Of a DNA stretch of 64,000 bases, positions 712 to 59,670 are shown piece after piece. This DNA is from Eubacteriales bacterium (GTDB taxonomy: Bacteria; Bacillota; Clostridia; Oscillospirales; CAG-272), in NCBI GenBank assembly GCA_045655185.1, contig JAZOOS010000026.1:9505-73504 (forward strand), written 5' to 3'. The translations under genes and the position numbers were made by a program. Position 1 is the stretch's first letter; the number at the start of each line of letters is the position of its first letter. The notes below the pieces were generated by a model. That model was not told where the DNA came from, did not search any database, and was given only the letters and a program-made list of their open reading frames with translations.

Positions 712-2151
712 TTAAAGCTTGTCGTCCTCAAAATTGGGTTCTATATTGTAAAAATCAAGCAAGGGTAAGAGCAGAAGCGCGGCAAGCCCCGCCGTGAAGC
801 CGCCGTTATAAAGCACGAAGCCGCCGTGCATAGAGGCGGTAACGCAACAGATCGCAGCGCTTGCAAAGCCCGCGGCAATGCCCACCTTGGCACCGTATTT
901 TCCCGCAAAGGGGCAAAGCCCCGTGGCAAAGGCAAGCCCGCCGAGATACACCTGGCTGCCAAGCGTCCAAGGGATCGACCAACCGAGCAGTTCGCACACC
1001 CCAAAGCAAAGCGCAAACAAAAGCGCGTACCCCAGGGCGATCGGCCAAACCGTACGGATCTGCTGCCCGTCAGCCGAGAAGGTCAGCGCCGCGAAGATCA
1101 CCCCAAGGGTGGGGCCGGTAAAGCCCGCCGCCTTGGGCAGGGCGGGGATAAGGGTCGGCAAAAGGGTAACGAGATCAAAGAAGACAAGCAGGCAAAGTCC
1201 GTATACCGCAAGGTTGATAAGGCAGACGGGGAAGCCGAAGCGATCGACGAAATCGGTGCCGTAGCCGGTTGAACGAAGCAGGGCGCCGAAGCCCTCAAAG
1301 CTTTTGTTGTTCGCAAGGTATCCCCAAAGAAGCGTGATGAGAAAGAGCGCGGCAAGGAAGAGATTGCAAAAGAGGATATAGCGGTAAGGCAGCGCCTCGT
1401 AGGCGCCGTTTGGCGGGTTTTGCGCCAGGGGGGCGACAAGCCCCAAGCAACGGTAAAGAAGCGCGTAGCAAAAGACACCGAGCAGCCCGATCGCGAGCCC
1501 CGCCTTATAAAGGCTGTATCCGCGGTGCATCTTTGAGGTACCCGCAATCAGCGCGGGAACCGCAAAGCCGACCCCGATCCCGAAGAGGAGCGAGAGAATC
1601 ACACCCGAAGCCGAGAGCCCAACGCCACCCCCGTGGGTCGGCGGATAGCGGAAGAGGAAATCCCCGATAAAGGGGCTAAGGGCGGTGGAAAAGAGGGCGA
1701 TGGGAAGATGCTCGCCAAAAGAAACGCGGCGGCAAAGACAATAGACGAAGGCGCCCAAAAGGATCGGTAAGCACGAAAGCAGCGAAAGCCCGTAAAAGCC
1801 GTGGGCGATCACAAGGAAATAGGCGGCAAGCGTGGTGGCGTTTGCCCGCGTTTTGCTAAGAAGCATCAAAAGGTTGACCAAAAGCCCCAACAGCGCGGTG
1901 TTAAAGAAGGCGCTGCCAAGCCCCCCAAGACGGAAATAGTCGGTGATAAGCGGCGAGGGGGTGGTTTGCAGGGCAAGAAAATGGCTCCAAAATTCGGTCT
2001 CCCTCGTGATAAGCGCGCCAAAAAGGGCGCTGAGCAAGAGAAAAAGACTGACGAAGAGGGTGTAAAGACGGATATAACGGGAAGCCCCCTCGGTGTGATG
2101 CAGCGAGGCGCGGTACGCCGAAAGCCGTGTTTTTATGGTTCTTTTTGCCAT
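712..2151 (-). CDS. polytopic integral membrane protein (possibly DUF1576-type; unverified)
   Basis: ORF 712..2301 (-). I prefer the internal start MAKRTIKTRL (ATG comp. 2149-2151). About 12 hydrophobic segments and no recognisable soluble domain. Confidence 0.6.
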   Translation of the reverse strand: MAKRTIKTRLSAYRASLHHTEGASRYIRLYTLFVSLFLLLSALFGALITRETEFWSHFLALQTTPSPLITDYFRLGGLGSAFFNTALLGLLVNLLMLLSKTRANATTLAAYFLVIAHGFYGLSLLSCLPILLGAFVYCLCRRVSFGEHLPIALFSTALSPFIGDFLFRYPPTHGGGVGLSASGVILSLLFGIGVGFAVPALIAGTSKMHRGYSLYKAGLAIGLLGVFCYALLYRCLGLVAPLAQNPPNGAYEALPYRYILFCNLFLAALFLITLLWGYLANNKSFEGFGALLRSTGYGTDFVDRFGFPVCLINLAVYGLCLLVFFDLVTLLPTLIPALPKAAGFTGPTLGVIFAALTFSADGQQIRTVWPIALGYALLFALCFGVCELLGWSIPWTLGSQVYLGGLAFATGLCPFAGKYGAKVGIAAGFASAAICCVTASMHGGFVLYNGGFTAGLAALLLLPLLDFYNIEPNFEDDKL

Positions 2152-2334
2152 GCGGACATCCTTTGCTTGTAAAATAGGGCGCCCTTTTCGGTCTTTTTCG
2201 GCGCTCTCTACTACTATATCATTTTTTGAAGAAATAATCAAGAGTCTTTGAAGGAGAAGGAGACCTCCCTCCTTGTGCCAAGATACCGGCATCAAAAGCA
2301 TGCGTACGGATCGACAAAAAATCGGTGTCTCTTC

Positions 2335-2611: not shown

Positions 2612-3994
2612 ATGGTACACTGTTATAAGCAGGGCGGCTACAACATCGTCCTTGACACCTATTCGGGCGCCATCCACGTCGTGGATGCGGTCGCCTTCGA
2701 TATGATAAACGAATTTGAAAGCTGCGAGAAGGGGGCGCTGATCGCCTCGCTTCTTGAAAAATATAAGGATGATCCCACCGTTACCGAGGAAGAGCTTCTT
2801 TCTTGCTACGGCGAGATCCTTTCTTTGAAGGAAAGCAAAAAGCTTTTCGCCCCCGACACCTTCGAAAAGCGGGCGGGGGATTTGAAGGAAAAGACCGCGG
2901 GGGTCGTTAAGGCGCTTTGCCTGCACGTGGCGCATACCTGCAACCTTACCTGCGCTTATTGCTTCGCGGGGCAGGGAAAATATGCGGGAAAGAGCGCGGT
3001 GATGTCTTTTGAGACCGGTAAGCGCGCCCTTGATTTCCTGATCGAAAACTCGGGTACGCGCCATAACCTTGAAGTCGATTTCTTCGGCGGCGAGCCGCTT
3101 CTTAATTTCGACGTCGTCAAGCAGCTGGTGGCCTACGCCCGCTCGGTCGAAAAAAAGCATAATAAGAACTTCCGCTTCACCCTTACCACCAACGGGATGC
3201 TGATTGACGGGGACGTTATTGATTTTGCCAACAGGGAAATGAGCAACGTGGTTCTGAGCCTTGACGGGCGAAAAGCGGTGCATGACCGCTATCGCGTTGA
3301 CGCACACGGCCGTGGCAGCTACGATCGCATCGTCCCGCTTTTTCAGGAGATGGTTAAAGCGCGCGAGGGCAAAAACTACTATATGCGCGGCACCTTTACC
3401 CACGAGAACCCCGATTTTTTGGAAGATATCAAGGAAATGCTTTCGCTCGGCTTCCGCGAGATCAGTATGGAGCCTGTGGTCGCCGCCCCCACCGATCCCG
3501 CCGCCCTTAGCGAAGAGGATCTTGCGGTGGTAATGAAGCAGTACGAAGAGCTGGCCGAGCTGATGCTGCAAAAGAAGAAGGAGGGCGATCCCTTTACCTT
3601 CTATCATTATATGATCGATCTTACGGGCGGCCCCTGCATCTATAAGCGGATCTCGGGCTGCGGCTCGGGCACCGAATATATGGCGGTCACCCCCACCGGA
3701 GACCTTTACCCCTGCCACCAGTTCGTCGGCGACGAGAAATTCAAGCTCGGCAACGTCTGGGACGGGGTTGATAATTTCGATATACAAAACGAGTTTCGTG
3801 CCTGCAACGTCTACGCGCGCCCCGAGTGCGCCGATTGCTGGGCCAAGCTTTATTGCTCGGGCGGGTGCGCCGCCAACGCCTATCACGCCACGGGCAGCAT
3901 CCGCGGCATCTACGAAAGCGGCTGCCGCCTTTTCCGTAAGCGTATGGAATGCGCGATCTACCTTGAGATCGCCAAGCGGGAGCTTGGGTTATGA
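2612..3994 (+). CDS. scfB: SCIFF radical SAM (SPASM) thioether-forming maturase
   Basis: 460 aa. CNLTCAYC (CxxxCxxC) radical SAM motif. Cys-rich SPASM-type C-terminus (CGSGTEYMAVTPTGDLYPCHQF...CADCWAKLYCSGGCAANA). Adjacent to the SCIFF precursor. Confidence 0.9.
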   Translation: MVHCYKQGGYNIVLDTYSGAIHVVDAVAFDMINEFESCEKGALIASLLEKYKDDPTVTEEELLSCYGEILSLKESKKLFAPDTFEKRAGDLKEKTAGVVKALCLHVAHTCNLTCAYCFAGQGKYAGKSAVMSFETGKRALDFLIENSGTRHNLEVDFFGGEPLLNFDVVKQLVAYARSVEKKHNKNFRFTLTTNGMLIDGDVIDFANREMSNVVLSLDGRKAVHDRYRVDAHGRGSYDRIVPLFQEMVKAREGKNYYMRGTFTHENPDFLEDIKEMLSLGFREISMEPVVAAPTDPAALSEEDLAVVMKQYEELAELMLQKKKEGDPFTFYHYMIDLTGGPCIYKRISGCGSGTEYMAVTPTGDLYPCHQFVGDEKFKLGNVWDGVDNFDIQNEFRACNVYARPECADCWAKLYCSGGCAANAYHATGSIRGIYESGCRLFRKRMECAIYLEIAKRELGL

Positions 3995-5325
3995 AAAACG
4001 CCCCCATTTATTCCTTCGTCAAGCGCTACGCCCAAAGGGGCGCGGTGCGCGCGCATATGCCGGGGCATAAGGGAAAACGTTTTTTGGGGCCCGAGCCCTT
4101 GGATATCACCGAGATTGCGGGCGCCGATGCGCTCTATCACGCAAACGGCATCATTCTGCAAAGCGAAAAATACGCCTCGGTGCTGTTCGGCTCGCAAAAG
4201 ACGCTCTATTCGACCGAGGGCTCTTCTCACTGTATTCGCGCGATGCTCTATCTTGCCAAGCTCTACGCCGCGAGCACGGGAAAAGAGGGGCGTATCCTTT
4301 GCGCCCGCAACGCCCATAAGTCGCTTCTTTCGGCGGCGGCGCTTACCGATACCGAGCTTTCCTGGCTTTACGGCGAGGGGTCGCTTCTTTCCTATACGCC
4401 CGACTTTGCGGAGATAGAGGCGCGCTTGCAAAGCGAAAGACCCGTCGCCCTTTTCGTCACCTCGCCCGATTATCTTGGGAACACCCTTGATCTTTTTGCG
4501 CTCTCTTCTCTTTGTCACCGATACGGCGCCCTGCTTCTCGTTGACAACGCCCACGGGGCATATCTGCGCTTTCTTTCGCCCTCGCTTCATCCCTTGGATG
4601 CCTCGTGTGATCTTTGCTGCGATTCGGCGCATAAGACCCTGCCTGCCTTAACGGGGGCCGCGTATCTGCATATCGGGCAGAATGCCCCTCTCTTCCTTTC
4701 GCAGGCGGCCGAGGGGGCGATGGCGCTTTTCGCCTCGACCAGCCCCTCGTATCTGACGCTTTCTTCGCTGGATACGCTGAACGAGCTTCTCTTCCGCCGC
4801 TTCCCGCGCGCCTTGGAAAACTTTCTTCCCAAGGTAAAGGAGTTAAAGGAAAGCCTTACGGCAAACGGCTATCGCTTGGTGGGGGATGAGCCCTTGAAGC
4901 TGACGCTTGCCACGAAGTCCTATGGGTATTTGGGAGAAACGCTTGCGGCCCTTTTGGAGCGAAAAAGGATCTTTGTCGAGCATGCGGACGCCGATCACGT
5001 CGTCTTGATGCTTTCCCCGCTTTTCGGGGGGCGTGAGCTTGTGAAGATCGGGCGAGCGCTTCTGTCGATCCCGCACCTTTTGCCGATCGAGGCGCCGCCG
5101 CCCCCCGCCGTACGGGGGGAAGCCGTCCTTTCCCCAAGGGAAGCGCTTTTTCGCCCAACGGTCACCGCGCCGCTTGAATGGGCCAAGGGGAAGATCCTCG
5201 GCGGCTTGCCGACGGCTTGTCCGCCGGCGGTTCCGATCTTAATGCCGGGCGAAAAAATAACCGAAGAAGCCATCGAAGCCTTCCGCTATTACGGCTACCG
5301 TGAGGTAGCGGTTCTTTGCGAATAA
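3991..5325 (+). CDS. PLP-dependent enzyme, Orn/Lys/Arg decarboxylase major-domain family
   Basis: 444 aa. HMPGHKG near the N-terminus and DSAHKTLPALTGAAYLH (PLP-lysine context). The start overlaps the scfB stop (ATGA). Confidence 0.75.
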   Translation: MKNAPIYSFVKRYAQRGAVRAHMPGHKGKRFLGPEPLDITEIAGADALYHANGIILQSEKYASVLFGSQKTLYSTEGSSHCIRAMLYLAKLYAASTGKEGRILCARNAHKSLLSAAALTDTELSWLYGEGSLLSYTPDFAEIEARLQSERPVALFVTSPDYLGNTLDLFALSSLCHRYGALLLVDNAHGAYLRFLSPSLHPLDASCDLCCDSAHKTLPALTGAAYLHIGQNAPLFLSQAAEGAMALFASTSPSYLTLSSLDTLNELLFRRFPRALENFLPKVKELKESLTANGYRLVGDEPLKLTLATKSYGYLGETLAALLERKRIFVEHADADHVVLMLSPLFGGRELVKIGRALLSIPHLLPIEAPPPPAVRGEAVLSPREALFRPTVTAPLEWAKGKILGGLPTACPPAVPILMPGEKITEEAIEAFRYYGYREVAVLCE

Positions 5326-5386: not shown

Positions 5387-5416
5387 GTATGATTTTCGGC
5401 TTTTTGCTTACAATAG

Positions 5417-15194: not shown

Positions 15195-15722
15195 TTATTT
15201 TTCCTTGTATTCATGCGTATCGGCGGGATAAACCAGCTTGATGCTCTTGCGATTTTGCAAGTGAACGATATAAAATTTATCCCCCGATGAAGCGAGCTGA
15301 TAGGCCGTTTTCGTGGCCTCAAAGGGCTTAAAGCCGTGAAAAACGAAAAAATCGAATTGACCGCGGCGCTGGCCCCGCACCGTTTCGGTTTTGTAGGATA
15401 AGGGCATAAGCTTGATCTCAAATTCCCCCGCCGCAAATTTCTTTCTTCTCCAAAGGAGGAGAAAAGCCGCAAAAAGCGCGGCACAAGCGTGGAAGGCAAA
15501 AAAGGCGATCGACAAAGCCGAAAACAAAAAAACAAGGGATGGGGCCGTGAAAAGATTGGAAACGATAAATAGGCAGAGAAGCGCCCCCATAACGCTAAAC
15601 AGAATGGTGAAAAGGATGGAAAGCAAATGCGCGCGGATCTCTTCCCTGCTAAAGGCAAGAAGATCTTCCCTCACGGTTTTTCGCGTGATTGGGATCTTCG
15701 TTTTCTTTTCCATAAGGATCAC
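15195..15722 (-). CDS. hypothetical 2-TM membrane protein (paralog of 17301..17864)
   Basis: 175 aa: charged N-terminus, two TM helices, RRKK, then a soluble tail ending ...KLVYPADTHEYKEK. Same layout and C-terminal motif as the ORF on the other side of the tRNA operon. Confidence 0.6.
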   Translation of the reverse strand: MILMEKKTKIPITRKTVREDLLAFSREEIRAHLLSILFTILFSVMGALLCLFIVSNLFTAPSLVFLFSALSIAFFAFHACAALFAAFLLLWRRKKFAAGEFEIKLMPLSYKTETVRGQRRGQFDFFVFHGFKPFEATKTAYQLASSGDKFYIVHLQNRKSIKLVYPADTHEYKEK

Positions 15723-15860
15723 CGCCTTTCTGATTGCATTGTATCATATTTTCCGATATTTTTCAACACAAAAACTTCCTTTCGTTTGGGGTACACACCG
15801 CAATACCAAAAGGAAGGGTTGGATAAGATTTTGGGGATTATTTGTTATCAATGAACGCAT

Positions 15861-15974
15861 CCAAATCACGGCAAAGCCGTGGATATCATCAAGGCGAAGC
15901 CTTGTATATCATCAAGACGCGGGAGAATGCACGCCGGTGCGTGATGATATGCCAAGCCTGCGGTTTGGATAAAA
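15861..15974. repeat. comb array, word ATATCATC (left) / GATGATAT (right)
   Basis: CCAAATCACGGCAAAGCCGTG+GATATCATC, AAGGC-GA-GCCTT+GTATATCATC, ...GCAC-GCCG-GTGC+GTGATGATATG, CCAAGCC-TGC-GGTTTGG+ATAAAAAAA. Confidence 0.85.
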
Positions 15975-16007
15975 AAATAAAGCACCCGAAATGGGTGCTT
16001 TATTTTT
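15975..16007. terminator. bidirectional intrinsic terminator
   Basis: AAATAAAGCACCC-GAAA-TGGGTGCTTTATTTTT. Near-identical copy at 16587..16624. Confidence 0.65.
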
Positions 16008-16032
16008 AGAGGTGTGTTGACAGAAAAGATGC

Positions 16033-16329
16033 CTACTTTTTTATTTTTGCAACTATTCTTGCAACAATTGAAAGAACGATATAGATTGTACATACACCTA
16101 CAAAAACCCAACCGATCGGGTTATCTCCACGAGATTCGACAAGCATAACAACGCCAACGACAAGAAGAACAAACAAGCAAATGCCTATCAAAGAAAATAT
16201 AACCACCAAAATCTTTTCTGTACGCGGTGAAAGAGCTTTGTTGGGCATAAAAGCAACAGAGAAGGCAACAAAGCCTTCGGCAAATATATTAAAAACAACT
16301 TCGACCAAAAAATCCACAAGAAAATCCAT
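16033..16329 (-). CDS. hypothetical small membrane protein
   Basis: 98 aa, 3 hydrophobic segments, looks AT-rich, bracketed by two related comb arrays. Confidence 0.5.
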   Translation of the reverse strand: MDFLVDFLVEVVFNIFAEGFVAFSVAFMPNKALSPRTEKILVVIFSLIGICLFVLLVVGVVMLVESRGDNPIGWVFVGVCTIYIVLSIVARIVAKIKK

Positions 16330-16394
16330 TGTTCTACCGCCCTTCTCGGCTTAGTATAGCATAAAAGCGGTGGGGAGTCAATCCGTTTGCGTGT

Positions 16395-16586
16395 CCAAAT
16401 CACGGCAAAGCCGTGGATGGAATCCGCAGCTTGTCTGCGGTATGGAATCGGCCCGTAGGGCCGAATGGAATCAAGCCGACGGGAAATACAGCCTAAAGGC
16501 TGATGCCATGCACGGCTCGCGCCGTGGTTCCATGCAATTCGCTTTGCGAATTGATGCCATGCCAAGCCTCCTTTGTCGGCTTGGAT
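16395..16586. repeat. comb array, word ATGGAAT (left) / TTCCATG-GCCATG (right)
   Basis: CCAAATCACGGCAAAGCCGTG+GATGGAAT, CCGCAG-CTTGT-CTGCGG+TATGGAAT, CGGCCC-GTA-GGGCCG+AATGGAAT, ...CACGGC-TCGC-GCCGTG+GTTCCATG, CAATTCGC-TT-GCGAATTG+ATGCCATG, CCAAGCC...GGCTTGG+ATAAAAAAA. Confidence 0.85.
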
Positions 16587-16624
16587 AAAAAAACAAAGCA
16601 CCCGAAATGGGTGCTTTGTTTTTT
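16587..16624. terminator. bidirectional intrinsic terminator ending the tRNA operon
   Basis: AAAAAAACAAAGCACCC-GAAA-TGGGTGCTTTGTTTTTTT, abutting the 3' end of tRNA-Cys. Confidence 0.7.
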
Positions 16625-16698
16625 TGGAGGCGCCACCCAGAATCGAACTGGGGGTAGAGGTGTTGCAGACCTTTGCCTTACCGCTTGGCCATGGCGCC
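16625..16698 (-). tRNA. tRNA-Cys (GCA)
   Basis: Reverse complement GGCGCCATGGCCAAGCGGTAAGGCAAAGGTCTGCAACACCTCTACCCCCAGTTCGATTCTGGGTGGCGCCTCCA. Cloverleaf folds, anticodon loop CT-GCA-AC, U73 discriminator, encoded CCA. Confidence 0.9.
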
Positions 16699-16734
16699 GA
16701 GGTAAAAACGGACACAGGGTTTCCGTGTCCGTTC

Positions 16735-16810
16735 TGGAGCGGATTACGGGGCTCGAACCCGCCACCTCGACCTTGGCAAGGTCGCGCTCTACCAAATGAG
16801 CTAAATCCGC
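16735..16810 (-). tRNA. tRNA-Gly (GCC)
   Basis: Reverse complement GCGGATTTAGCTCATTTGGTAGAGCGCGACCTTGCCAAGGTCGAGGTGGCGGGTTCGAGCCCCGTAATCCGCTCCA. Anticodon loop TT-GCC-AA. Confidence 0.9.
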
Positions 16811-16831
16811 AAGTGGCAGCATAATGCTGCA

Positions 16832-16907
<76 letters not shown>

Positions 16908-16910
16908 AAA

Positions 16911-16987
16911 TGGCGACCCGGATGGGGCTCGAACCCACGACCTCTGCCGTGACAGGGCAGCGCTCTAACCAACTGAGCTACCAGGCC
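16911..16987 (-). tRNA. tRNA-Asp (GTC)
   Basis: Reverse complement GGCCTGGTAGCTCAGTTGGTTAGAGCGCTGCCCTGTCACGGCAGAGGTCGTGGGTTCGAGCCCCATCCGGGTCGCCA. Anticodon loop CT-GTC-AC. Confidence 0.9.
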
Positions 16988-17015
16988 GTTTCACCAATGG
17001 AGGGGACAAAAAGGT

Positions 17016-17092
17016 TGGTGGGAACAATAGGACTCGAACCTATGACCCCTTGCTTGTAAGGCAAATGCTCTAACCAACTGAGCTATGCTCCC
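17016..17092 (-). tRNA. tRNA-Val (TAC)
   Basis: Reverse complement GGGAGCATAGCTCAGTTGGTTAGAGCATTTGCCTTACAAGCAAGGGGTCATAGGTTCGAGTCCTATTGTTCCCACCA. Anticodon loop CT-TAC-AA. Confidence 0.9.
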
Positions 17093-17121: not shown

Positions 17122-17150
17122 ATTATAGCAAAAGACTTTTGGTTTGTCAA
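17122..17150 (-). promoter_or_regulatory. sigma-A type promoter of the tRNA operon
   Basis: The minus strand reads TTGACA (comp. 17145-17150), 17 nt, TATAAT (comp. 17122-17127), about 30 nt upstream of tRNA-Val. Confidence 0.65.
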
Positions 17151-19337: not shown

Positions 19338-19506
19338 CCGAATGAAGTGTGCAGGAAAGTGTGGCAACACAGCCGAAGGAGTAACGCTCTCAGGTGTCCG
19401 CAAGGATAGAGACTGTATGCTGACGGATCTTTGGAGACGCCCACGTACGTGGGGGCCGAAGGGGCAAGCGCTGTGGCGCCAATCTCTCAGGCAAAAGGAC
19501 AAAGAG
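19338..19506 (+). promoter_or_regulatory. tandem glycine riboswitch
   Basis: Aptamer 2: GGAGACGCCC...GGGGGCCGAAGGGGCAAGCG...CTCTCAGGCAAAAGGACAAAG. Aptamer 1 (more degenerate): GCAGGAAAGTG...CAGCCGAAGGAGTAACGCTCTCAGGTGTCCGCAAGGATAGAG. Located upstream of an alanine/glycine symporter, a classical context. Confidence 0.8.
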
Positions 19507-19560
19507 CGAACCTTTTCGCATTTTTTGTTTTTTACGGGGCGTTTCGTACGCCCCTTTTTT
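19505..19560 (+). terminator. two consecutive leader terminators (expression platform)
   Basis: GCGAA-CCTT-TTCGC+ATTTTTTGTTTTTT, then GGGGCG-TTTCGTA-CGCCCC+TTTTTT. Confidence 0.6.
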
Positions 19561-19592
19561 GTTGTTTATTTTATGTTTCTTTGGAGGAAATT

Positions 19593-21137
19593 ATGGAACA
19601 GTTTATCAATGGCGTCACAAACGTCAACAACGCCGTCAACGGCGCGGTATGGGGTCTTCCCGGCCTCATCCTTCTCATCGGTACCGGCATTTTGCTGACC
19701 GTGCTCACCAAGGTCTTTCAGGTGCGGCACGTCGGGCATTGGTGGAAGCAAACCATCGCCAGTGTCTTTAAAAAGGACAGCAAAAGCACCAAGCAGACCG
19801 ACAAAAAGAGCATCTCGCAATTCCAAGCGCTTTGCGCCGCCCTTGCCGCCACGGTCGGCACGGGAAATATCGCGGGCGTTGCCGCCGCGATCGTAACGGG
19901 TGGCCCCGGCGCGGTTTTCTGGATGTGGTTCGCCGCCTTCTTCGGAATGATGACCAACTTCTCGGAAAACCTGCTCGGCATCTACTACCGCCGCCGCAAC
20001 AAGGACGGCGAGTGGTCGGGTGGCCCGATGTATTATCTGTGCGACGGGCTTGGCAAGCGCTACGGCAAGAAGTGGCTTTCGCCGACCTCGAAGGTCTTGG
20101 CGGTCCTCTTCTCTTGCTTTGCCATCCTTGCTTCCTTCGGTATCGGAAACATGGCGCAGATCAATAAGATCGTTCTTAACATGGACGCCGCCTTCTTCCA
20201 GAACGCCAGCCTCGGCGTGATCCCCGGCACCGATATCAATATCATCCACCTGCTGCTTGGCATTTTCCTGCTTATCATCGGCGCCCTCATTATCATCGGC
20301 GGGTTGAAGCGTATTGCCCGCTTTGCCGAGATCGTTGTTCCGATCATGGCTATCGTTTACGTCCTCGGCTCGCTCATCATCGTTTGCATCAACATCAGCC
20401 AGGTTGGCCCGATGTTCGTTTCGATCTTCAAGTTTGCCTTTACGCCTGCCGCCTTCCTTGGCGGTGGGATCGGCGTTCTCATCAAAAAGACGATGACGCA
20501 GGGCTTCAAGCGCGGCGTTTTCTCGAACGAGGCGGGTCTTGGCTCTTCGGTCATGGTTCACTCTTCCTCGAACGTCAAAGAGCCGGTCAAGCAGGGTATG
20601 TGGGGCATCTTTGAGGTCTTCTTCGATACCATGATCGTTTGCACCATGACGGCGGTCGTCGTTCTTTCGACCGGCTATATCGATCTTGCCACCGGTACGC
20701 CCGTGGCGGGCATCAACGGCGATACGCTGGTTTCGACCGCGTTTGGTAAATACTTCGGCGCCCCCGGCACCTGGTTCGTGGCGATCGCGATGCTCTTCTT
20801 CGCCTTTACCACGGTTCTCGGCTGGTCGCAATACGGCTCGAAGGCGGTCGAATACCTCTTCGGCACGAAGGGCGTGAAGGTCTATCGCTTCATCTTTGTC
20901 GCGATGATCGTTTCGGGTGCTATTATGGAGGGTGGCCTTGCCTGGGATCTTTCGGATACCTTCAACGGGCTGATGATGATCCCGAACCTTATCGGTGTTC
21001 TGGCGCTCTTCCCCTTGGTCGTTAAGATCACGAAGAACTACGTCGACCGTAAGATCTTTAAAAAGGATATCGCCCCGCTTCTTTCCTACGACCCCGAAAT
21101 TCAGGCGGAGATGGAAAGAACGCTTGACGAGGAATAA
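19593..21137 (+). CDS. agcS: alanine/glycine:cation (sodium) symporter, AGCS family
   Basis: ORF 19431..21137. Start MEQFINGVTNVNNAVNGAVWG after GGAGGAAA. FQALCAALAATVGTGNIAGVAAAI and SNEAGLGS motifs. Confidence 0.85.
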   Translation: MEQFINGVTNVNNAVNGAVWGLPGLILLIGTGILLTVLTKVFQVRHVGHWWKQTIASVFKKDSKSTKQTDKKSISQFQALCAALAATVGTGNIAGVAAAIVTGGPGAVFWMWFAAFFGMMTNFSENLLGIYYRRRNKDGEWSGGPMYYLCDGLGKRYGKKWLSPTSKVLAVLFSCFAILASFGIGNMAQINKIVLNMDAAFFQNASLGVIPGTDINIIHLLLGIFLLIIGALIIIGGLKRIARFAEIVVPIMAIVYVLGSLIIVCINISQVGPMFVSIFKFAFTPAAFLGGGIGVLIKKTMTQGFKRGVFSNEAGLGSSVMVHSSSNVKEPVKQGMWGIFEVFFDTMIVCTMTAVVVLSTGYIDLATGTPVAGINGDTLVSTAFGKYFGAPGTWFVAIAMLFFAFTTVLGWSQYGSKAVEYLFGTKGVKVYRFIFVAMIVSGAIMEGGLAWDLSDTFNGLMMIPNLIGVLALFPLVVKITKNYVDRKIFKKDIAPLLSYDPEIQAEMERTLDEE

Positions 21138-21400: not shown

Positions 21401-21456
21401 AAATCGCTATCCCCGTTTTCACCGAAATATGCGTTATAATAGGGGCGCAAACCGAA

Positions 21457-21485
21457 TTGACGGCGAGTGATTTTTGATGTATAAT
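21457..21485 (+). promoter_or_regulatory. promoter of toxin cassette 1
   Basis: TTGACG, 17 nt, TATAAT. The same element is present upstream of cassettes 2 and 3. Confidence 0.65.
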
Positions 21486-21498
21486 AAAGGAGAATACG

Positions 21499-22040
21499 AT
21501 GAGCTCTGTTACAGAAGCGAATCCTTACGTTTTGGGAAACAGCAAAACGTGGAAGAATTGGCAAGCCAACTATAAAGAGCCGAGAACCTGCCTGCCGTGC
21601 GAAGATAAGCATGGGAAGATCTATCCTTTTCTTCAAGTTTAAAAATCCCCGAGCATCTGTTTTGTCGATGCGAAATTGTTCCAATGCGAACAAAACAAGT
21701 GGGGACAGCCACCGATAAAGGCTTTGGCTGGGCCGATGCTTGGTTGATGTATCGGGGCAGGTTGCCGGATTGTTATATTACAAAGAGAGATGCGCTGAAA
21801 ATGGGATGGAAATCTAACAAACAAAACTTGGCAGATGTTTGTCCGGAAAAGCTAATAGGAAATGTACCATATCGTAACTACGAGGGAAAACTTCCTATTA
21901 AGGCTGATCGAAGCTGGTATGAGGCAGATTTTGATTATATTGGCAACGATAGAGGGGCAAACAGAATTTTATATTCGAACGATGGCTTAATCTTTGTCAG
22001 CTACGATCATGCAAAAACTTTTTATGAATTAGTGAAATAA
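21499..22040 (+). pseudogene. mini-MuF - barnase-like RNase toxin, frameshifted (cassette 1)
   Basis: MSSVTEANPYVLGNSKTWKNWQANYKEPRTCLPCEDKHGKIYPF then TAA at 21640-21642. Relative to copies 2 and 3, one C is missing in TATCC(C)TTTT at about 21626. The shifted frame continues ...SSSLKIPEHLFCRCEIVPMRTKQVGT... through the full barnase-like domain (track ORF 21684..22040). Confidence 0.8.
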
Positions 22041-22052
22041 AGAGGTGACATT

Positions 22053-22373
22053 GTGCTGAACACATATAAATACAAAGTCGATTTTTCGGGCGTGGAGGAT
22101 TATTGGGATATCCACGGCATACTTAAAGAAAGCTTGAATTTTCCCGATTATTACGGCGGTCATTTGGACGCGCTTTTTGATTGCCTTACCGATATGCTTG
22201 GCGCCATTTCGATAATTGAAATACACGGAATAGAAAAACTTGAAAAGTATGACGGGTATGACAAAAGGGTGATTGATGTTTTTCGTGACGCAAAGCATGT
22301 TTATGATGAATTTTCCGACCGCTTCTTCGTTACGATCGTTCATGAGGACGGCACGCGCGAAGAAATCGTATAG
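22053..22373 (+). CDS. barstar-like immunity protein (cassette 1)
   Basis: 106 aa, GTG start. ILKESLNFPDYYGGHLDALFDCLTDML matches the barstar [23 protein letters not shown] motif. Confidence 0.8.
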   Translation: MLNTYKYKVDFSGVEDYWDIHGILKESLNFPDYYGGHLDALFDCLTDMLGAISIIEIHGIEKLEKYDGYDKRVIDVFRDAKHVYDEFSDRFFVTIVHEDGTREEIV

Positions 22374-26072: not shown

Positions 26073-26294
26073 GGTTAGTGCAGAAAAAACGGCAAAGGCG
26101 TTTTTTCAATCGGTGTCGGCCAAAGCGCGAGCGGGCAGAGCCGAGCAGGCGCAGGCGATAGAACGCGACACACGACGCCGACAGGTTAGTGCAGAAAAAA
26201 CGGCAAAGGCGTTTTTTCAATCGGTGTCGGCCAAAGCGCGAGCGGGCAGAGCCGAGCAGGCGCAGGCGATAGAACGCGACACACGACGCCGACA
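26073..26294. repeat. perfect 111-bp tandem duplication
   Basis: GGTTAGTGCAGAAAAAACGGCAAAGGCGTTTTTTCAATCGGTGTCGGCC...GACGCCGACA occurs twice head-to-tail (26073-26183, 26184-26294), identical by eye. Confidence 0.9.
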
Positions 26295-26391
26295 GGTCGA
26301 GCATCGCTCGTCCGGTTTTTCCTCGTAGGCGCGTAGGGGCGACCATTGGTCGTCCGCTGAAATATGCGTTATAATAGGGGCGTAAACCGAT

Positions 26392-26420
26392 TTGACGGCG
26401 AGCGATTTTTGATGTATAAT
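26392..26420 (+). promoter_or_regulatory. promoter of toxin cassette 2
   Basis: TTGACG (26392-26397), 17 nt, TATAAT (26415-26420). Confidence 0.65.
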
Positions 26421-26433
26421 AAAGGAGAATACG

Positions 26434-26976
26434 ATGAGCTCTGTTACAGAAGCGAACCCTTACGTTTTGGGAAACAGCAAAACGTGGAAGAATTGGCAAG
26501 CAAAATATAAAGAGCCGAGAACCTGCCTGCCGTGCGAAGAAAAGCATGGGAAAATTTATCCCTTCACTTCAAGTTTTAAAATTCCCGAGCATTTGTTTTG
26601 CCGATGCGAAATTGTCCCGATGCGAACAAAGCAGGTGGGCACAGTAACCGACAAGGGCTTCGACGGCGCCGATGCTTGGTTGATGTATCGGGGTAGGTTG
26701 CCGGATTATTACGTTACGAAGGAAGAAGCAATGGCTTGTGGGTGGGATTACAGAAAGAAAAATCTTGCAGAAAAATGCCCCTGCAAAATGATAGGTGGAA
26801 ACATTTATCGGAATGATGACTTAAAACTTCCCACTTCTCCTGATAGGGAGTGGCGAGAAGCCGATTTCGATTTCGTATCTGGAAAAAGAAATCGAAAAAG
26901 AATTTTATATTCAAACGACGGGTTGATTTTTGTCAGCTATGATCACGCGCAAACCTTTTATGAACTAGTGAAATGA
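26434..26976 (+). CDS. mini-MuF - barnase-like RNase toxin (cassette 2)
   Basis: 180 aa. RTCLPCEEKHGKIYPF...IPEHLFCRCEIVP (MuF/SPP1 gp7 C-terminal core), then YVTKEEAMACGW...LKLP...WREADFDF...RKRILYSNDGLIFVSYDHAQTFYELVK (barnase-like, Glu/His pair present). Confidence 0.8.
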   Translation: MSSVTEANPYVLGNSKTWKNWQAKYKEPRTCLPCEEKHGKIYPFTSSFKIPEHLFCRCEIVPMRTKQVGTVTDKGFDGADAWLMYRGRLPDYYVTKEEAMACGWDYRKKNLAEKCPCKMIGGNIYRNDDLKLPTSPDREWREADFDFVSGKRNRKRILYSNDGLIFVSYDHAQTFYELVK

Positions 26977-26986
26977 GGTAAATCCA

Positions 26987-27313
26987 ATGCTTGAAACTTA
27001 CAGATACAGAGTTGATTTATCCAAAGCCAAAAACCATTGGGAGATACACGATATCTTGAAAGAAGCCTTGGATTTTCCCGATTATTACGCAGGACATCCG
27101 TATGCTCTGTGGGATTGCTTAACCGATATGCTGGGCGGGATCAATTACATAGAGATCTCGGGAATGGAAAACGTGAAAATGGTTTCCGCCGAAGATTATA
27201 AAGAGATTCTTTCCTTGCTAAAAGAAACCAAACATGCTTACGACGATAAATTTTCCGACCGCTTCTTCGTTACCATCGTTCACGAGGACGGCACGCGCGA
27301 AGAGATCCTGTGA
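26987..27313 (+). CDS. barstar-like immunity protein (cassette 2)
   Basis: 108 aa. ILKEALDFPDYYAGHPYALWDCLTDML; ends ...VHEDGTREEIL, like the other two copies. Confidence 0.8.
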   Translation: MLETYRYRVDLSKAKNHWEIHDILKEALDFPDYYAGHPYALWDCLTDMLGGINYIEISGMENVKMVSAEDYKEILSLLKETKHAYDDKFSDRFFVTIVHEDGTREEIL

Positions 27314-29235: not shown

Positions 29236-29389
29236 CATCTATCCGCCGCGCGTTTTTTCTGCGGACGGCCGATGGCCGTTTCGTTGCGTTTTTCACCGTA
29301 GGGGCGAGCATCGCTCGTCCGCGCGAAACGGGCAAAGCGTTGTCCTCATTTGCGCCGAAATATGCGTTATAATAGGGGCGCAAGCCGAT

Positions 29390-29418
29390 TTGACGGCGAT
29401 CGATTTTTGATGTATAAT
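29390..29418 (+). promoter_or_regulatory. promoter of toxin cassette 3
   Basis: TTGACG (29390-29395), 17 nt, TATAAT (29413-29418). Confidence 0.65.
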
Positions 29419-29431
29419 AAAGGAGAATACG

Positions 29432-29974
29432 ATGAGCTCTGTTACAGAAGCGGATCCTTATGTTTTTGGAAACAGCAAAACGTGGAAGAATTGGCAAGCA
29501 AAATATAAAGAGCCGAGAACCTGCAAGCCGTGCGAGGATAAACATGGGAAGATCTATCCCTTTTCTTCAAGTTTAAAAATTCCCGAGCATTTGTTTTGCC
29601 GATGCGAAATTGTCCCGATGCGAACAAAGCAGGTGGGCACAGTAACCGACAAGGGCTTCGACGGCGCCGATGCTTGGTTGATGTATCGGGGCCGGTTGCC
29701 GGATTATTATGTTACGAAAGAAGAAGCGAAGGGGAAAGGGTTTCGCCGCAAAAAGCAAAACTTGGCAGATGTTCTTCCCGGTCAAATGATAGGGGGGGAT
29801 GAGTTTAGTAACGATCAAAGAAAATTGCCGGACGCACCAAACAGAAGATGGTACGAAGCCGATCTTGATTATACTTACGGAAAAAGAAATTTGAAAAGGA
29901 TTTTATATTCAAGTGACGGTTTGATTTTTGTAACGAAAGATCATTATCAAACATTTTACGAAGTAATAAAGTGA
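29432..29974 (+). CDS. mini-MuF - barnase-like RNase toxin (cassette 3)
   Basis: 180 aa. Closest of the three to Bacillus barnase: YVTKEEAKGKGF..KQNLADVLPGQMIGGDEFSNDQRKLPDAPNRRWYEADLDYTYGKRNLKRILYSSDGLIFVTKDHYQTFYEVIK. Confidence 0.85.
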   Translation: MSSVTEADPYVFGNSKTWKNWQAKYKEPRTCKPCEDKHGKIYPFSSSLKIPEHLFCRCEIVPMRTKQVGTVTDKGFDGADAWLMYRGRLPDYYVTKEEAKGKGFRRKKQNLADVLPGQMIGGDEFSNDQRKLPDAPNRRWYEADLDYTYGKRNLKRILYSSDGLIFVTKDHYQTFYEVIK

Positions 29975-29983
29975 GGGAAAGAG

Positions 29984-30301
29984 ATGGATAAATATGTTGT
30001 GGATTTTTCCGAAGTAACACATTACATCGAGATTCATGAAGCATTAAAGAAAGATTTGGATTTTCCCGATTATTACGGCGGGAACACCGATGCTTTATGG
30101 GATTGCTTGACCGATATGCTGGGCGATTCTTCGCATATTGAGCTTGTTGGCTTTGAAAAGGTAAAAGAACGCTATAAAAATGAATGGGAAGGCATCCTTC
30201 GAATTATGAAAAAAGCAAAGCATGCCTACGGCGGTAAATATGCAAACACATTTGTTGTCGTGTTAATACATGAGGACGGCACACGGGAAGAGATCCTATA
30301 A
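29984..30301 (+). CDS. barstar-like immunity protein (cassette 3)
   Basis: 105 aa. ALKKDLDFPDYYGGNTDALWDCLTDML. Confidence 0.85.
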   Translation: MDKYVVDFSEVTHYIEIHEALKKDLDFPDYYGGNTDALWDCLTDMLGDSSHIELVGFEKVKERYKNEWEGILRIMKKAKHAYGGKYANTFVVVLIHEDGTREEIL

Positions 30302-30326
30302 TAAAAATTAACCGTGCCAACAAAAT

Positions 30327-30562: not shown

Positions 30563-30609
30563 AAATGCCCCCCATTCCTTGCACCAGTAAAGATATAAAA
30601 AGTGTAGCA

Positions 30610-30655
30610 TACTCAAAAATTGAGTATTGACATTTACTCAAAGATTGAGTATAAT
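30610..30655 (+). promoter_or_regulatory. divergent promoter with two 17-bp palindromic operators
   Basis: TACTCAAAAATTGAGTA (30610-30626) and TACTCAAAGATTGAGTA (30635-30651), 25 bp apart. TTGACA (30627-30632), 17 nt, TATAAT (30650-30655). Confidence 0.65.
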
Positions 30656-30737
30656 GGGTTTGTTGCGGCAAACCATAGGCTTTATGCAAGGCTTCGCCGA
30701 TCAATACTTTATTATTTTGTGCATTTGGAGGAGAACG

Positions 30738-59339: not shown

Positions 59340-59627
59340 ACGGCAGGGGGCATAAGATATACTTGCTGTGCAAGCATGATAGAATATCCGTTCCTTATAT
59401 GCCCGCGATATCATAGCGAAGCTATATACCCGTTCCGCTCGGAGCATTGGATATCATCCGTCCGAAAGCGAGATGTACTCGTTTTCGGGCGAGTATCTCA
59501 TCAAGCCGCAGGGAAAATACACGCGGAAGCGTGATGATATGCCCCGCACTTCGCGCGGTGATGTAAGGAGCGGAGCGACGGAATAGCGAGCCTGCGAGCG
59601 TCTATACCAAGCCTGCGGCTTGGATAA
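59340..59627. repeat. comb array, word ATATCATC-like (left) / GATGATAT (right)
   Basis: CTTGC-TGT-GCAAG, ...GGATATCATCC, ACTCG-TTTTCGGG-CGAGT+ATCTCATC, CACGC-GGAA-GCGTG+ATGATATG, ...CCAAGCC-TGC-GGCTTGG+ATAAAAAAA. Confidence 0.75.
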
Positions 59628-59670
59628 AAAAATTCGACAAGACGACGCTCGTCGTTCGGAAGGACAGTTT

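Follow-up and report, generated by a model that had tools for sequence, protein, structure and literature searches.

Three kinds of described element come closest to the one reported here. Bacterial interspersed mosaic elements and repetitive extragenic palindromes (BIME/REP) as well as the pneumococcal BOX elements (boxA-boxB(n)-boxC) are extragenic, lie at the 3′ ends of transcription units and have a strong folding potential; they are modular mosaics of palindromic units and short conserved linkers, with internal units that differ in number and end modules that are conserved. In integrons, small genes alternate with attC sites of one orientation; the ends of these sites and their fold as single strands are conserved while their interior varies, and the cassettes stack at one attachment point with a content that varies among close relatives. 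The intervening sequences (IVS) of 23S rRNA genes, with their 'S23p' / 23S_rRNA_IVP proteins of the TIGR02436/PF05635 family, have self-complementary structured flanks, a patchy distribution and apparently undergo horizontal exchange (PMC4990558; bioRxiv 10.1101/2024.02.27.582315). All these traits recur in the hairpin-ladder elements described here, which also stand at stable-RNA genes and have the same protein family as a neighbor; defining features of each kind are absent from them. We found them in a 64,000-nt stretch of Eubacteriales bacterium DNA (64 kb, contig JAZOOS010000026.1, positions 9,505 to 73,504, forward strand; hereafter the window), where two arrays of AT-rich words and GC-rich hairpins, A1 and A2, flank the small gene ORF98 behind a tRNA operon. 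The elements form what is apparently a large, undescribed and unannotated family in gut and rumen Clostridia.

An earlier note, made by reading the letters alone, had placed two arrays at 15861-16007 and 16395-16624. Both are real, but the two starts are one base too high. Including their terminators, A1 extends over 15860-16007 and A2 over 16394-16625 (all coordinates are those of the whole window, and + is the strand used by the earlier reader). As had been noticed, the first 25 nt are identical in A1 and A2. This 25-mer, TCCAAATCACGGCAAAGCCGTGGAT, has two exact copies in the window (15860-15884 and 16394-16418; 0 expected from 100 shuffles), and so has the terminator core AAAGCACCCGAAATGGGTGCTTT (15979-16001 and 16595-16617); both counts greatly exceed chance. 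The 3′ ends share GCCAAGCCT..GG(C/T)TTGGATAAAAAAA(T/C)AAAGCACCC..GGGTGCTTT(A/G)TTTTT, the sole differences being the loop of the last hairpin and one compensatory T-A vs C-G pair in the terminator stem. The internal words are likewise as described, ATATCAT/ATGATAT in A1 and ATGGAAT followed by ATGCCAT/GTTCCAT in A2, and with their conserved termini and variable, self-complementary interiors A1 and A2 are copies of one element type. Their parts are as follows; L-numbers denote related loci, obtained from genome and metagenome scans plus look-ups with a four helix bundle (4HB) protein.

15860..15970, + strand: array A1, a short class-C copy with a layout homologous to the arrays of L005 and L011
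From 15860, + strand: start of A1, TCCAAAT and then the first hairpin CACGGC-aaa-GCCGTG
15883 and 15906, + strand: left words of A1, ATATCAT
15911-15923, + strand: degenerate centre box of A1, ATCAAGACGCGGG
15944, + strand: single right word of A1, ATGATAT
15952-15968, + strand: 3′ hairpin of A1, CCAAGCC-tgc-GGTTTGG
15971..16007, both strands: T1, bidirectional intrinsic terminator (A-run, AAAGCACCC-gaaat-GGGTGCTTT, T-run)
16394..16586, + strand: array A2, a class-G copy with a layout homologous to the arrays of L010 and L012
16417, 16442 and 16465, + strand: three left words ATGGAAT of A2 with side hairpins, after TCCAAAT and the first hairpin
16470-16483, + strand: centre box of A2, ATCAAGCCGACGGG
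16472..16480, + strand: centre strand of the long-range helix of A2, CAAGCCGAC, with its partner GTCGGCTTG at 16575-16583
16503, 16527 and 16554, + strand: right arm of A2, three hairpins with the words ATGCCAT, GTTCCAT and ATGCCAT
16562-16584, + strand: 3′ hairpin of A2, CCAAGCC-tcctttgtc-GGCTTGG
16587..16625, both strands: T2, bidirectional intrinsic terminator whose T-run overlaps the first base of the tRNA-Cys CCA end

T1 and T2 have the GC-rich hairpin and T-run of an intrinsic (Rho-independent) terminator, and an A-run flank lets them read on both strands. They fold into a stem of 15-17 bp when the A/T runs are counted, and a simple terminator scan missed them because its T-run window begins past the extended stem. 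The T-run of A2 leads directly into the CCA end of tRNA-Cys, its last T being the first base of that end; A2 supplies the terminator of the tRNA operon, in agreement with the earlier reading, and T1 also terminates the ORF98 transcript. Both arrays fold far better than shuffled sequences, as RNA or DNA and on either strand (z −5.4 to −8.3). The minus-strand DNA fold of A2 selects the long-range helix between centre box and 3′ end, and the partner strand GTCGGCTTG has an alternative pairing with CCAAGCC at 16562-16568. All hairpin-ladder features are present in A2; A1 has them with a degenerate centre (CAAGACGCGG) and a G.T pair in its 3′ hairpin. The earlier reader missed a third, degenerate array, which has no adjoining tRNA and no clean terminator.

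~59403-59633, + strand: third array, degenerate, class C, with the words ATATCAT and ATCTCAT
59500, 59534 and 59607, + strand: its centre ATCAAGCCGCAGGG, right word ATGATAT and 3′ hairpin CCAAGCCTGCGGCTTGG

A scan of the window for clusters of hairpins with perfect stems of at least 6 bp returned only A2 and an unrelated operator-like promoter at 30609-30674. The repeat family D17 resembled further arrays and was ruled out because it sits in coding sequence.

To define the family two scans were run. The first compared the exact pattern of the 5′ terminus with one genome per species and gave 13 true matches, each a single copy, in Clostridia (metagenome-assembled genomes of Oscillospiraceae or Eubacteriales from animal and human gut), besides five chance matches in coding DNA of unrelated phyla. 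The second, independent of the 5′ motif, searched metagenome contigs for the 3′ hairpin motif and gave 83 loci with ~75 true arrays, from sources that include rumen, camel, kangaroo, pig and human gut. Altogether, ~90 copies from Clostridia/Oscillospiraceae genomes and gut and rumen metagenomes show one architecture in both scans. On the + strand, a copy begins with (T)CCAAAT and a first hairpin (usually CACGGC-GNA-GCCGTG), followed by units of an 8-nt AT-rich word and a GC-rich hairpin. The centre box ATCAAGCCGNNN comes next, then units of a hairpin and a complementary word, and finally CCAAGCC-loop-GGCTTGG, ATAAAAAA, the terminator hairpin and the T-run. The family is accordingly defined by the 3′ hairpin CCAAGCC-N-GGCTTGG with ATAAAAA and a terminator, by a centre box ATCAAGCCG whose complement is the 3′ arm, and by arms built from words plus hairpins. 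The hairpins are GC-rich and have 5-9 bp, the two arms are related by a dyad, and the number of units varies from one to at least eight, with runs of identical units in L099 and L042.

Sister families with the word pairs GTGAAAT|ATTTCAC (in which the loop polarity is reversed), ATGAAGC|GCTTCAT and GCGATAT|ATATCGC occur in L071 (~4000-4368), L095 (~1900-2220), L116, L103 (~2930-3050 and ~4330-4800) and L090, likewise behind tRNA genes or beside the promoter cassette described below. The array-bearing contig of L095 also carries, beside tRNA genes, a Gut-1 RNA (RF01706, 64 bits; 2111-2179, minus strand).

Hairpin-ladder elements are neither ordinary nor an artefact, and they are absent from current catalogues. 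At the gathering threshold, Rfam 15 found only five tRNAs and a glycine riboswitch in the whole window, a permissive scan of 15780-16640 gave only terminator-driven noise far below the cut-offs, and the arrays of 17 related loci had no Rfam match. A literature search returned no description of such elements. GOLLD and ROOL are large ornate RNAs that resemble the arrays in occurring in gut and rumen Firmicutes, often beside tRNA genes, and in being highly structured; in contrast to them, the arrays have no Rfam match, are much smaller, repetitive and dyad-symmetric, lack G.U pairs and do not occur in phages. The differences from the mosaic elements are equally clear. In REP sequences the palindromes are conserved and the linkers vary, whereas in the arrays the linkers (the words) are conserved and the palindromes vary with compensatory changes. 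REP/BIME units alternate in orientation, whereas array units are direct within an arm and inverted only between arms, and the GTAG box is absent from them. No REP-associated RAYT (Y1 HUH transposase) was seen in the 64-kb window and the 25 commonest Pfam families among the neighbors, which were viewed without a dedicated test. Unlike both REP/BIME and BOX, finally, the arrays are tied to tRNA/tmRNA (transfer-messenger RNA) terminators with a fixed polarity, fold with a long-range helix that shows covariation and have a 4HB gene as a linked neighbor.

The stable-RNA unit that carries the attached elements in the window is the following.

17092..16625, minus strand: tRNA operon Val-Asp-Phe-Gly-Cys, five tRNA genes
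17150..17122, minus strand: its promoter, TTGACA-17-TATAAT

For 63 arrays the sequence extends 130 nt or more past the terminator; in 33 of them a convergent tRNA or tmRNA gene (16 different identities in all) on the opposite strand has its 3′ end directly behind the terminator, 27-40 nt after ATAAA. On the other side of the array, a tRNA within 700 nt was found in 0 of 55 cases, and the polarity is therefore strict. From the tRNA outward the order is tRNA/tmRNA, terminator, 3′ hairpin (CCAAGCC..GGCTTGG), units, centre box (ATCAAGCCG..), inverted units and first hairpin. Only some of the tRNA operon ends in array-bearing contigs have an array. Relatives with a single array behind tRNA-Cys and no intervening ORF, which the earlier note had proposed to look for, are present in L001, L006, L016, L055, L021, L035, L050 and L078.

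The commonest gene on the far side of the array encodes a 117-aa TIGR02436 four helix bundle protein (PF05635, 23S_rRNA_IVP; E = 1.7e-19), with 2RLD as the closest solved structure. It lies at 27 loci, co-directional with the tRNA, and the linked subfamily comprises 1934 clusters at E ≤ 1e-10. One array class has the 4HB start codon ~20 nt away, the intervening sequence being free of promoters; in others a strong promoter intervenes. When contexts were reached via the 4HB protein instead of the array (L111, L112, L114 and L116), an array was directly upstream in four of four cases. The 4HB N-terminal types MAKNLLLEY, MPKNLLLDY and MxKNYLLxY accompany the word classes. Elsewhere, proteins of this family have been described in 23S rRNA intervening sequences and, under the name Avd, in diversity-generating retroelements (DGRs), and outside DGRs their function is unknown (PMC4990558; bioRxiv 10.1101/2024.02.27.582315; PMC10053308). 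In contrast to the IVS, which lie within an rRNA helix (helix 25 or 45), form one long stem and are excised by RNase III, the arrays stand behind a tRNA/tmRNA gene and its terminator and form a ladder of many hairpins, with the ORF outside the structure. The window copies are without the gene; no 4HB gene was detected within the 64 kb (tblastn best E = 0.47).

The earlier note had taken A1 and A2 as evidence that word complementarity, not word identity, is under constraint. Complementarity does hold at the level of word classes, in all six of them: the pairs are ATGTAAT|ATTACAT, ATATCAT|ATGATAT, ATGGAAT|ATTCCAT and the three sister pairs given above, and the left and right majority cores complement each other exactly in 47 of 72 arrays (permutation mean 21.5, maximum 34; 0/5000 reach 47). 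Within a class, however, word identity itself is conserved, and complementarity does not extend to single units. Comparison of within-array word variants unit by unit gave 185 mismatches in the nested register vs 181 in the parallel one, with 9 vs 11 wins and 45 ties; this register test for intramolecular word pairing was uninformative, and the unit-by-unit support for a pairing model is thereby gone. The right word ATGCCAT of A2 pairs with the left word ATGGAAT only with one A.G mismatch, and across the family the words ATGCCATC, ATGAGATA and the last-left ATGTTAT are conserved without being complementary. Since unit-by-unit covariation is missing and such non-complementary words exist, an inverted repeat of one recognition word fits equally well.

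Inverted words of this kind might be bound on duplex DNA, either as direct and inverted arm-type sites of a recombinase acting in trans or as operators for the 4HB protein or another regulator of the adjacent promoter. One motif in both orientations, in six classes and without unit-by-unit covariation, is what such binding predicts; the conserved promoter has a −35 box that overlaps with the first hairpin, and the 4HB N-terminal types go with the word classes, although mere physical linkage may account for the latter. The words are, however, spaced by 23-26 nt in the left arm and 19-30 nt in the right arm and are not helically phased. At 19-30 bp the sites would lie on different faces of the helix, which argues against flat duplex sites and for extruded hairpins. 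Duplex binding would also leave the perfect GC-rich palindromic spacers, their compensatory evolution and the long-range helix unexplained, and we regard it as very unlikely.

The real covariation sits in the side hairpins and in a helix between centre and 3′ end, not in the words. An RNAalifold consensus of 11 class-T arrays, an alignment too small for firm statistics, has 57 pairs; compensatory double changes occur in 18 of these, chiefly in side hairpins. The loop and 3′ arm of the last hairpin can pair with the centre box CAAGCCGNNN.., a complementarity missed by the earlier reader. It forms a helix of 9-12 bp (examples are GACGAA/TTCGTC, GACAG/CTGTC, GCAG/CTGC, GTAG/CTAC, GCC/GGC and GATTT/AAATC), which brackets one arm and competes with the local hairpin CCAAGCC/GGCTTGG. 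In 47 distinct copies pairing in its 12-pair version reaches 90.4%, double-sided changes affect five pairs, and slid controls are only 16-42% paired. Its covariation is 0.257 vs 0.111 in shuffles, 0/500 of which reach the observed value, a count that is not a probability because the sequences are related. Hypervariability of the stems, as in a DGR, was considered and rejected because the arrays evolve no faster than the 4HB gene.

Several features of the stems and loops bear on whether the structure acts in RNA or in DNA. The stems are nearly all Watson-Crick: G.U occupies 5 of 627 cells in the 11-sequence alignment and is rarer than outright mismatches. Among single mismatches, G.T and A.C number 8 vs 12 overall and 4:4 and 3:6 by arm, and neither strand shows a preference for wobble. 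Left-arm loops, read on the + strand, are G(N)NA in 62 of 115 cases and never T(N)NC; right-arm loops, read on the minus strand, are G(N)NA in 34 of 90 cases and of the T(N)NC type in two. Read inward, the hairpins of both arms open with CA after the word. Loop polarity is mirrored, which the earlier reader had missed; in the GTGAAAT sister family it is reversed. The commonest loops, C-GAA-G, C-GTA-G and C-GCA-G, are reportedly, from work by Hirao and Yoshizawa, classic extra-stable DNA mini-hairpin loops. Folded single-stranded DNA (ssDNA) ends with C-GNA-G mini-hairpins occur in Streptomyces telomeres, parvovirus termini and ssDNA phage origins. The arrays resemble these in their dense short GC stems, GAA/GTA/GCA triloops, Watson-Crick-only pairing and larger foldbacks that join the arms; in contrast to those replicon ends or origins, they are internal to the chromosome, present in several copies and without an associated replication protein. 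None of the left flanks, which differ greatly among copies, yielded a promoter on the + strand; a strong terminator precedes the arrays on the tRNA strand, and many copies have a promoter between the array and the next gene. Watson-Crick stems, missing strand bias, mirrored loops and the lack of a + strand promoter together favor a cis element that folds as single-stranded DNA.

The same data can be read in terms of RNA. The arrays might belong to a + strand small RNA gene convergent with the tRNA operon, since array, A-run, hairpin and T-run resemble a small RNA with an intrinsic terminator, the right boundary of the element is the end of the T-run, and on the + strand G.T pairs occur once in the 3′ hairpin of A1 and at the end of the long-range helix. 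Given the missing + strand promoter in all the differing left flanks, a left flank that is often the start of a divergent gene 20 nt away, hairpins without wobble excess and the lack of an Rfam match, such a gene sharing the terminator is hardly credible.

Read-through of the terminator from the tRNA side is the chief rival explanation, though still unlikely. It would yield a cis-acting structured RNA that insulates the downstream gene from the strong tRNA promoter, or that serves as processing site or 5′ stabiliser of a promoter-less 4HB mRNA, like an IVS-like trailer. The folding is very strong, hairpins and long-range helix covary, and in the class with the 4HB start ~20 nt after the array the gap is free of promoters. 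Moreover, the 23S rRNA intervening sequences that encode the same protein family are excised from the precursor (PMC4990558; bioRxiv 10.1101/2024.02.27.582315). The leader sequence CACCGC, upstream of the −10 box, could pair with the Shine-Dalgarno-like (SD-like) GCGGTG only in read-through transcripts, one metatranscriptome contig is unbroken from tRNA-Val through the terminator into the array, and on the + strand some of the loops in the right arm read UUCG or UACG. On the other hand, a canonical terminator precedes the array, G.U pairs are almost absent with no strand bias, and the arms have mirrored loop polarity, which a sister family shows in reverse. The copies of class C, of the window type and of the sister families (e.g., L071 and L095) have a promoter between array and gene that places the array outside that mRNA. 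In the one clean data set, array and flanks have equal RNA depth, as DNA carry-over could also produce; the window genome itself is barely represented in public runs.

The surroundings of the arrays show the conservation and turnover typical of exchanged modules. A block of 4HB gene and array is 85-100% identical in L001, L003, L006, L007, L009, L014, L016 and L030, with both flanks unalignable, and the terminator hairpin swaps independently of this block. Array conservation equals or exceeds that of the adjoining tRNA-Cys gene; between L006 and L016 the identity is 94.4% for the array, 90.9% for 4HB and 77.0% for tRNA-Cys. Conversely, L103, closely related to the window (95% identity in the tRNA operon, 91% in ORF98 and 81% in the DUF3267 gene), has wholly different arrays and genes between tRNA-Cys and DUF3267, in the following order.

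L103, first part: terminator, GCTTCAT-class array, 4HB fragment, lipoprotein gene, the 19-mer TGTTGACAGAAAAGATGCC, and TTGGAGGCG, the exact tRNA-Cys 3′ end
L103, after TTGGAGGCG: promoter, ORF98, GCGATAT-class array, acyltransferase

The corresponding region of the window contains these features.

16353..16381, minus strand: promoter of ORF98, sigma-70-type, TTGACT-17-TATACT with TG
16033..16329, minus strand: ORF98, small membrane protein gene (98 aa), the cassette between A1 and A2
16015..16033: 19-nt junction motif TGTTGACAGAAAAGATGCC, after the A1 terminator and AGAGGTG
16008..16014: AGAGGTG, probably a decayed copy of the tRNA-Cys end (GGAGGCG, 16626-16632)
15195..15766, minus strand: co-directional unit behind A1, promoter TTGAAA-17-TACAAT (15766..15738) and 175-aa membrane ORF (15722..15195)

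ORF98 is a real gene, with 12 homologues (72-90% identity) and its own promoter; it has no Pfam family above the cut-off. Exact-protein look-ups gave no record for ORF98 or its DUF3267 neighbor, and PADLOC and PHROGs gave no match for 4HB, ORF98 or the 175-aa protein. The ORF98 promoter belongs to a promoter/leader cassette (CACCGCTTTTATGCTATAMT..AAGG(G)CGGT), which recurs in conserved form next to arrays before unrelated ORFs. As CACCGCTTTTATGCTATAATACACCCAAGGCGGTGAT, the cassette lies left of arrays at 16340-16381 of the window and in L020, L031, L071, L077, L082, L095 and others, before unrelated small ORFs; pairing of its upstream CACCGC with the SD-like GCGGTG would require transcripts begun further upstream. 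The 19-mer recurs after a T-run and 6-7 nt beside the arrays of L003, L009, L014, L025, L103 and L107, where unrelated genes adjoin it. At the same junction L103 has the intact tRNA-Cys 3′ end TTGGAGGCG (7/7 bases match), and the unit with the 175-aa ORF is absent from it.

With the AGAGGTG remnant, the junction motif and the different cassettes of L103, the earlier idea that ORF98 was inserted beside the tRNA end is plausible. The idea of a simple duplication with one array did not hold: A1 is of class C and A2 of class G, and only the first hairpin (loop AAA) and the terminator are both genome-specific and identical in the two, which points to recombination or gene conversion at the ends and not to duplication of a whole array. 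Tandem whole arrays are present elsewhere, for example in L045. In L091 (1389-1674, run X16), a metatranscriptome or metagenome contig joins the array 5′ end to a point 40 nt past its terminator; this joint, which "goes back 286", corresponds to a tandem array or to a 286-nt circle, and other contigs skip 53-70 nt, equal to two or three units. Inversion of the right arm, which is bracketed by 12-bp inverted repeats, was considered and received no support, as all 13 copies from the 5′-motif scan are in one state. Direct repeats of the tRNA/tmRNA 3′ end of 16-20 nt (L010, L036, L044) bound other insertions of ~150 nt. Such mini-insertions lie in L010 (~4260-4440), L036 (~2555-2725 and ~3390-3529), L044 and L034; those of L010 and L034 share the end CTCAAACGTGCGCGTC, and they indicate a separate small element that targets tRNA 3′ ends.

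This turnover bears on a further explanation, in which the arrays are a host-domesticated, BIME/REP-like mosaic at the ends of highly transcribed units, acting in back-up bidirectional termination or pausing or as a platform for gyrase or nucleoid proteins that relieves supercoiling. BIME-2 elements are gyrase sites at operon ends and provide a parallel. The arrays, too, always lie between a terminator and the next co-directional gene, preferentially behind tRNA/tmRNA genes, with ordinary chromosomal neighbors; mosaic build, variable unit number, dyad symmetry and a bidirectional terminator would all fit. Such a role, however, sits badly with arrays on only some tRNA operon ends of the same contigs, and with arrays that are wholly different in close relatives at the same site, yet near-identical across distant contexts. 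It has no need for conserved words, a centre box and a covarying helix, leaves the 4HB linkage unexplained and is at odds with words out of phase with the DNA helix. We therefore consider it quite unlikely.

The reading we prefer, tentatively and with a probability of roughly 40%, is that the element is a cis site that acts at the DNA level as a folded single strand and belongs to exchangeable modules stacked at tRNA 3′ ends. The element itself starts where its bidirectional terminator meets the CCA end of a tRNA or tmRNA gene, and it comprises two arms of 2-8 units each. Terminator, array and then 4HB or another small gene with the conserved promoter would make up a small, horizontally exchanged module, and such modules would accumulate at the 3′ ends of stable-RNA genes. 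Most likely the element would act on DNA that is transiently single-stranded and folded. The words would represent one recognition motif in both orientations, and recognition may depend on structure plus short motifs, as can be likened to integron attC, REP/BIME and 23S-rRNA intervening sequences. In the window two modules would be stacked: behind tRNA-Cys, first T2-A2-promoter-ORF98-19mer and the tRNA-end remnant, then T1-A1-promoter-175-aa gene, with ORF98 as the cargo of the module nearer the tRNA operon. Mobility or recombination would be the putative purpose, and the 4HB protein may have a part in it.

Several observations weigh against this reading of a DNA-level module. Metatranscriptome assemblies hold array sequence, the tRNA-Val contig among them, at flat depth relative to the flanks and with no strand information, so that the arrays may be transcribed. 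A base-exact pair of empty and filled sites was not recovered, a circular or excised form was not shown, and the tRNA-end remnant in the window matches in only 5 of 7 bases (AGAGGTG vs GGAGGCG). Genes for a recombinase, transposase or reverse transcriptase are not linked to the arrays, 148 neighboring proteins showed no enrichment of integrases or recombinases, and phage, plasmid and viral collections gave no array match. High array conservation could stem from strong selection instead of transfer. Finally, stems of 6 bp cannot extrude from relaxed duplex DNA, and a single-stranded stage must therefore be assumed.

A more specific proposal, and an improbable one, takes the arrays as structured recombination sites of an integron-like or retro-mobile cassette system, with the tRNA/tmRNA CCA ends as attachment points and the Avd-like 4HB protein as accessory factor. 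In its retro-mobile variant, modules would be copied via an RNA intermediate primed on the CCA end of a stable RNA, which would explain why the element boundary is CCA followed by the complement of the terminator U-tail. Unlike attC sites, the arrays have no R''/R' core (RYYYAAC / GTTRRRY): they end in TCCAAAT.. and ..GGCTTGGATAAAAAA, and the junction motif TGTTGACA does not fit GTTRRRY. Unlike integrons, they have no adjacent intI or attI, their cassettes carry their own promoters, a tRNA/tmRNA 3′ end serves as attachment, and the fold is far more elaborate. The trait shared with integrons, small genes in alternation with like-oriented sites whose ends and fold are conserved and whose interior varies, is seen in the window (A2-ORF98-A1), in L045 and in L103. 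Phage_integrase occurs in 2 of the 148 neighboring proteins, which are products of ordinary chromosomal genes, and no integrase was seen in the window between 13 and 19.5 kb; the integrase gene beside the tRNA that marks tRNA-targeting islands is thus missing here.

If the picture of the family given here is correct, a highly structured and very widespread Oscillospiraceae element of gut and rumen, with a linked 4HB subfamily of ~1900 clusters, has gone unannotated. It would give the TIGR02436 / 23S-rRNA-IVS / Avd-like proteins a concrete nucleic-acid partner and a genomic logic, the ends of stable-RNA genes, and the tRNA 3′ flank of these bacteria would be a hot spot for cassettes that needs no integrase close by. 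Its design of conserved linkers, freely evolving perfect hairpins, mirrored loops and no wobble makes it a test case for separating selection on structure at the RNA level from selection at the DNA level. Should the integron-like or retro-mobile proposal be correct, the elements would represent a mobile genetic system of a new class and offer the first functional clue to the 23S-rRNA-IVS protein family.

Other features of the window lie apart from the arrays.

19421-19512, + strand: glycine riboswitch aptamer (RF00504, 65 bits), before a Na+/alanine symporter-type ORF at 19431-21137
21420-22367, 26355-27307 and 29353-30295: three ~1-kb paralogous gene copies with 70-94% nt identity
21365, 26333 and 29298: a REP-like box (GTAG plus hairpin, GTAGGGGCGRCCATYGGYCGTCC) before each of these paralogues, with a lone fourth box at 5416
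26073-26294: two exact tandem copies of a 111-nt unit, shortly before the second paralogue (family D8)
30609-30674: the operator-like promoter found in the hairpin-cluster scan, TTGACA..TATAAT within two 17-nt palindromes, TACTCAAAAATTGAGTA and TACTCAAAGATTGAGTA, upstream of a lipoprotein-like ORF

Terminator hairpins of the window also behave as repeated modules. The hairpin family AAAAGAGCAGAACCGNGGTTCTGCTCTTTT is reused at at least seven gene ends (22398, 23141, 25958, 27341, 29204 and 50362 among them), and similar hairpins lie at 30319 and 31826 (families D5-D7).

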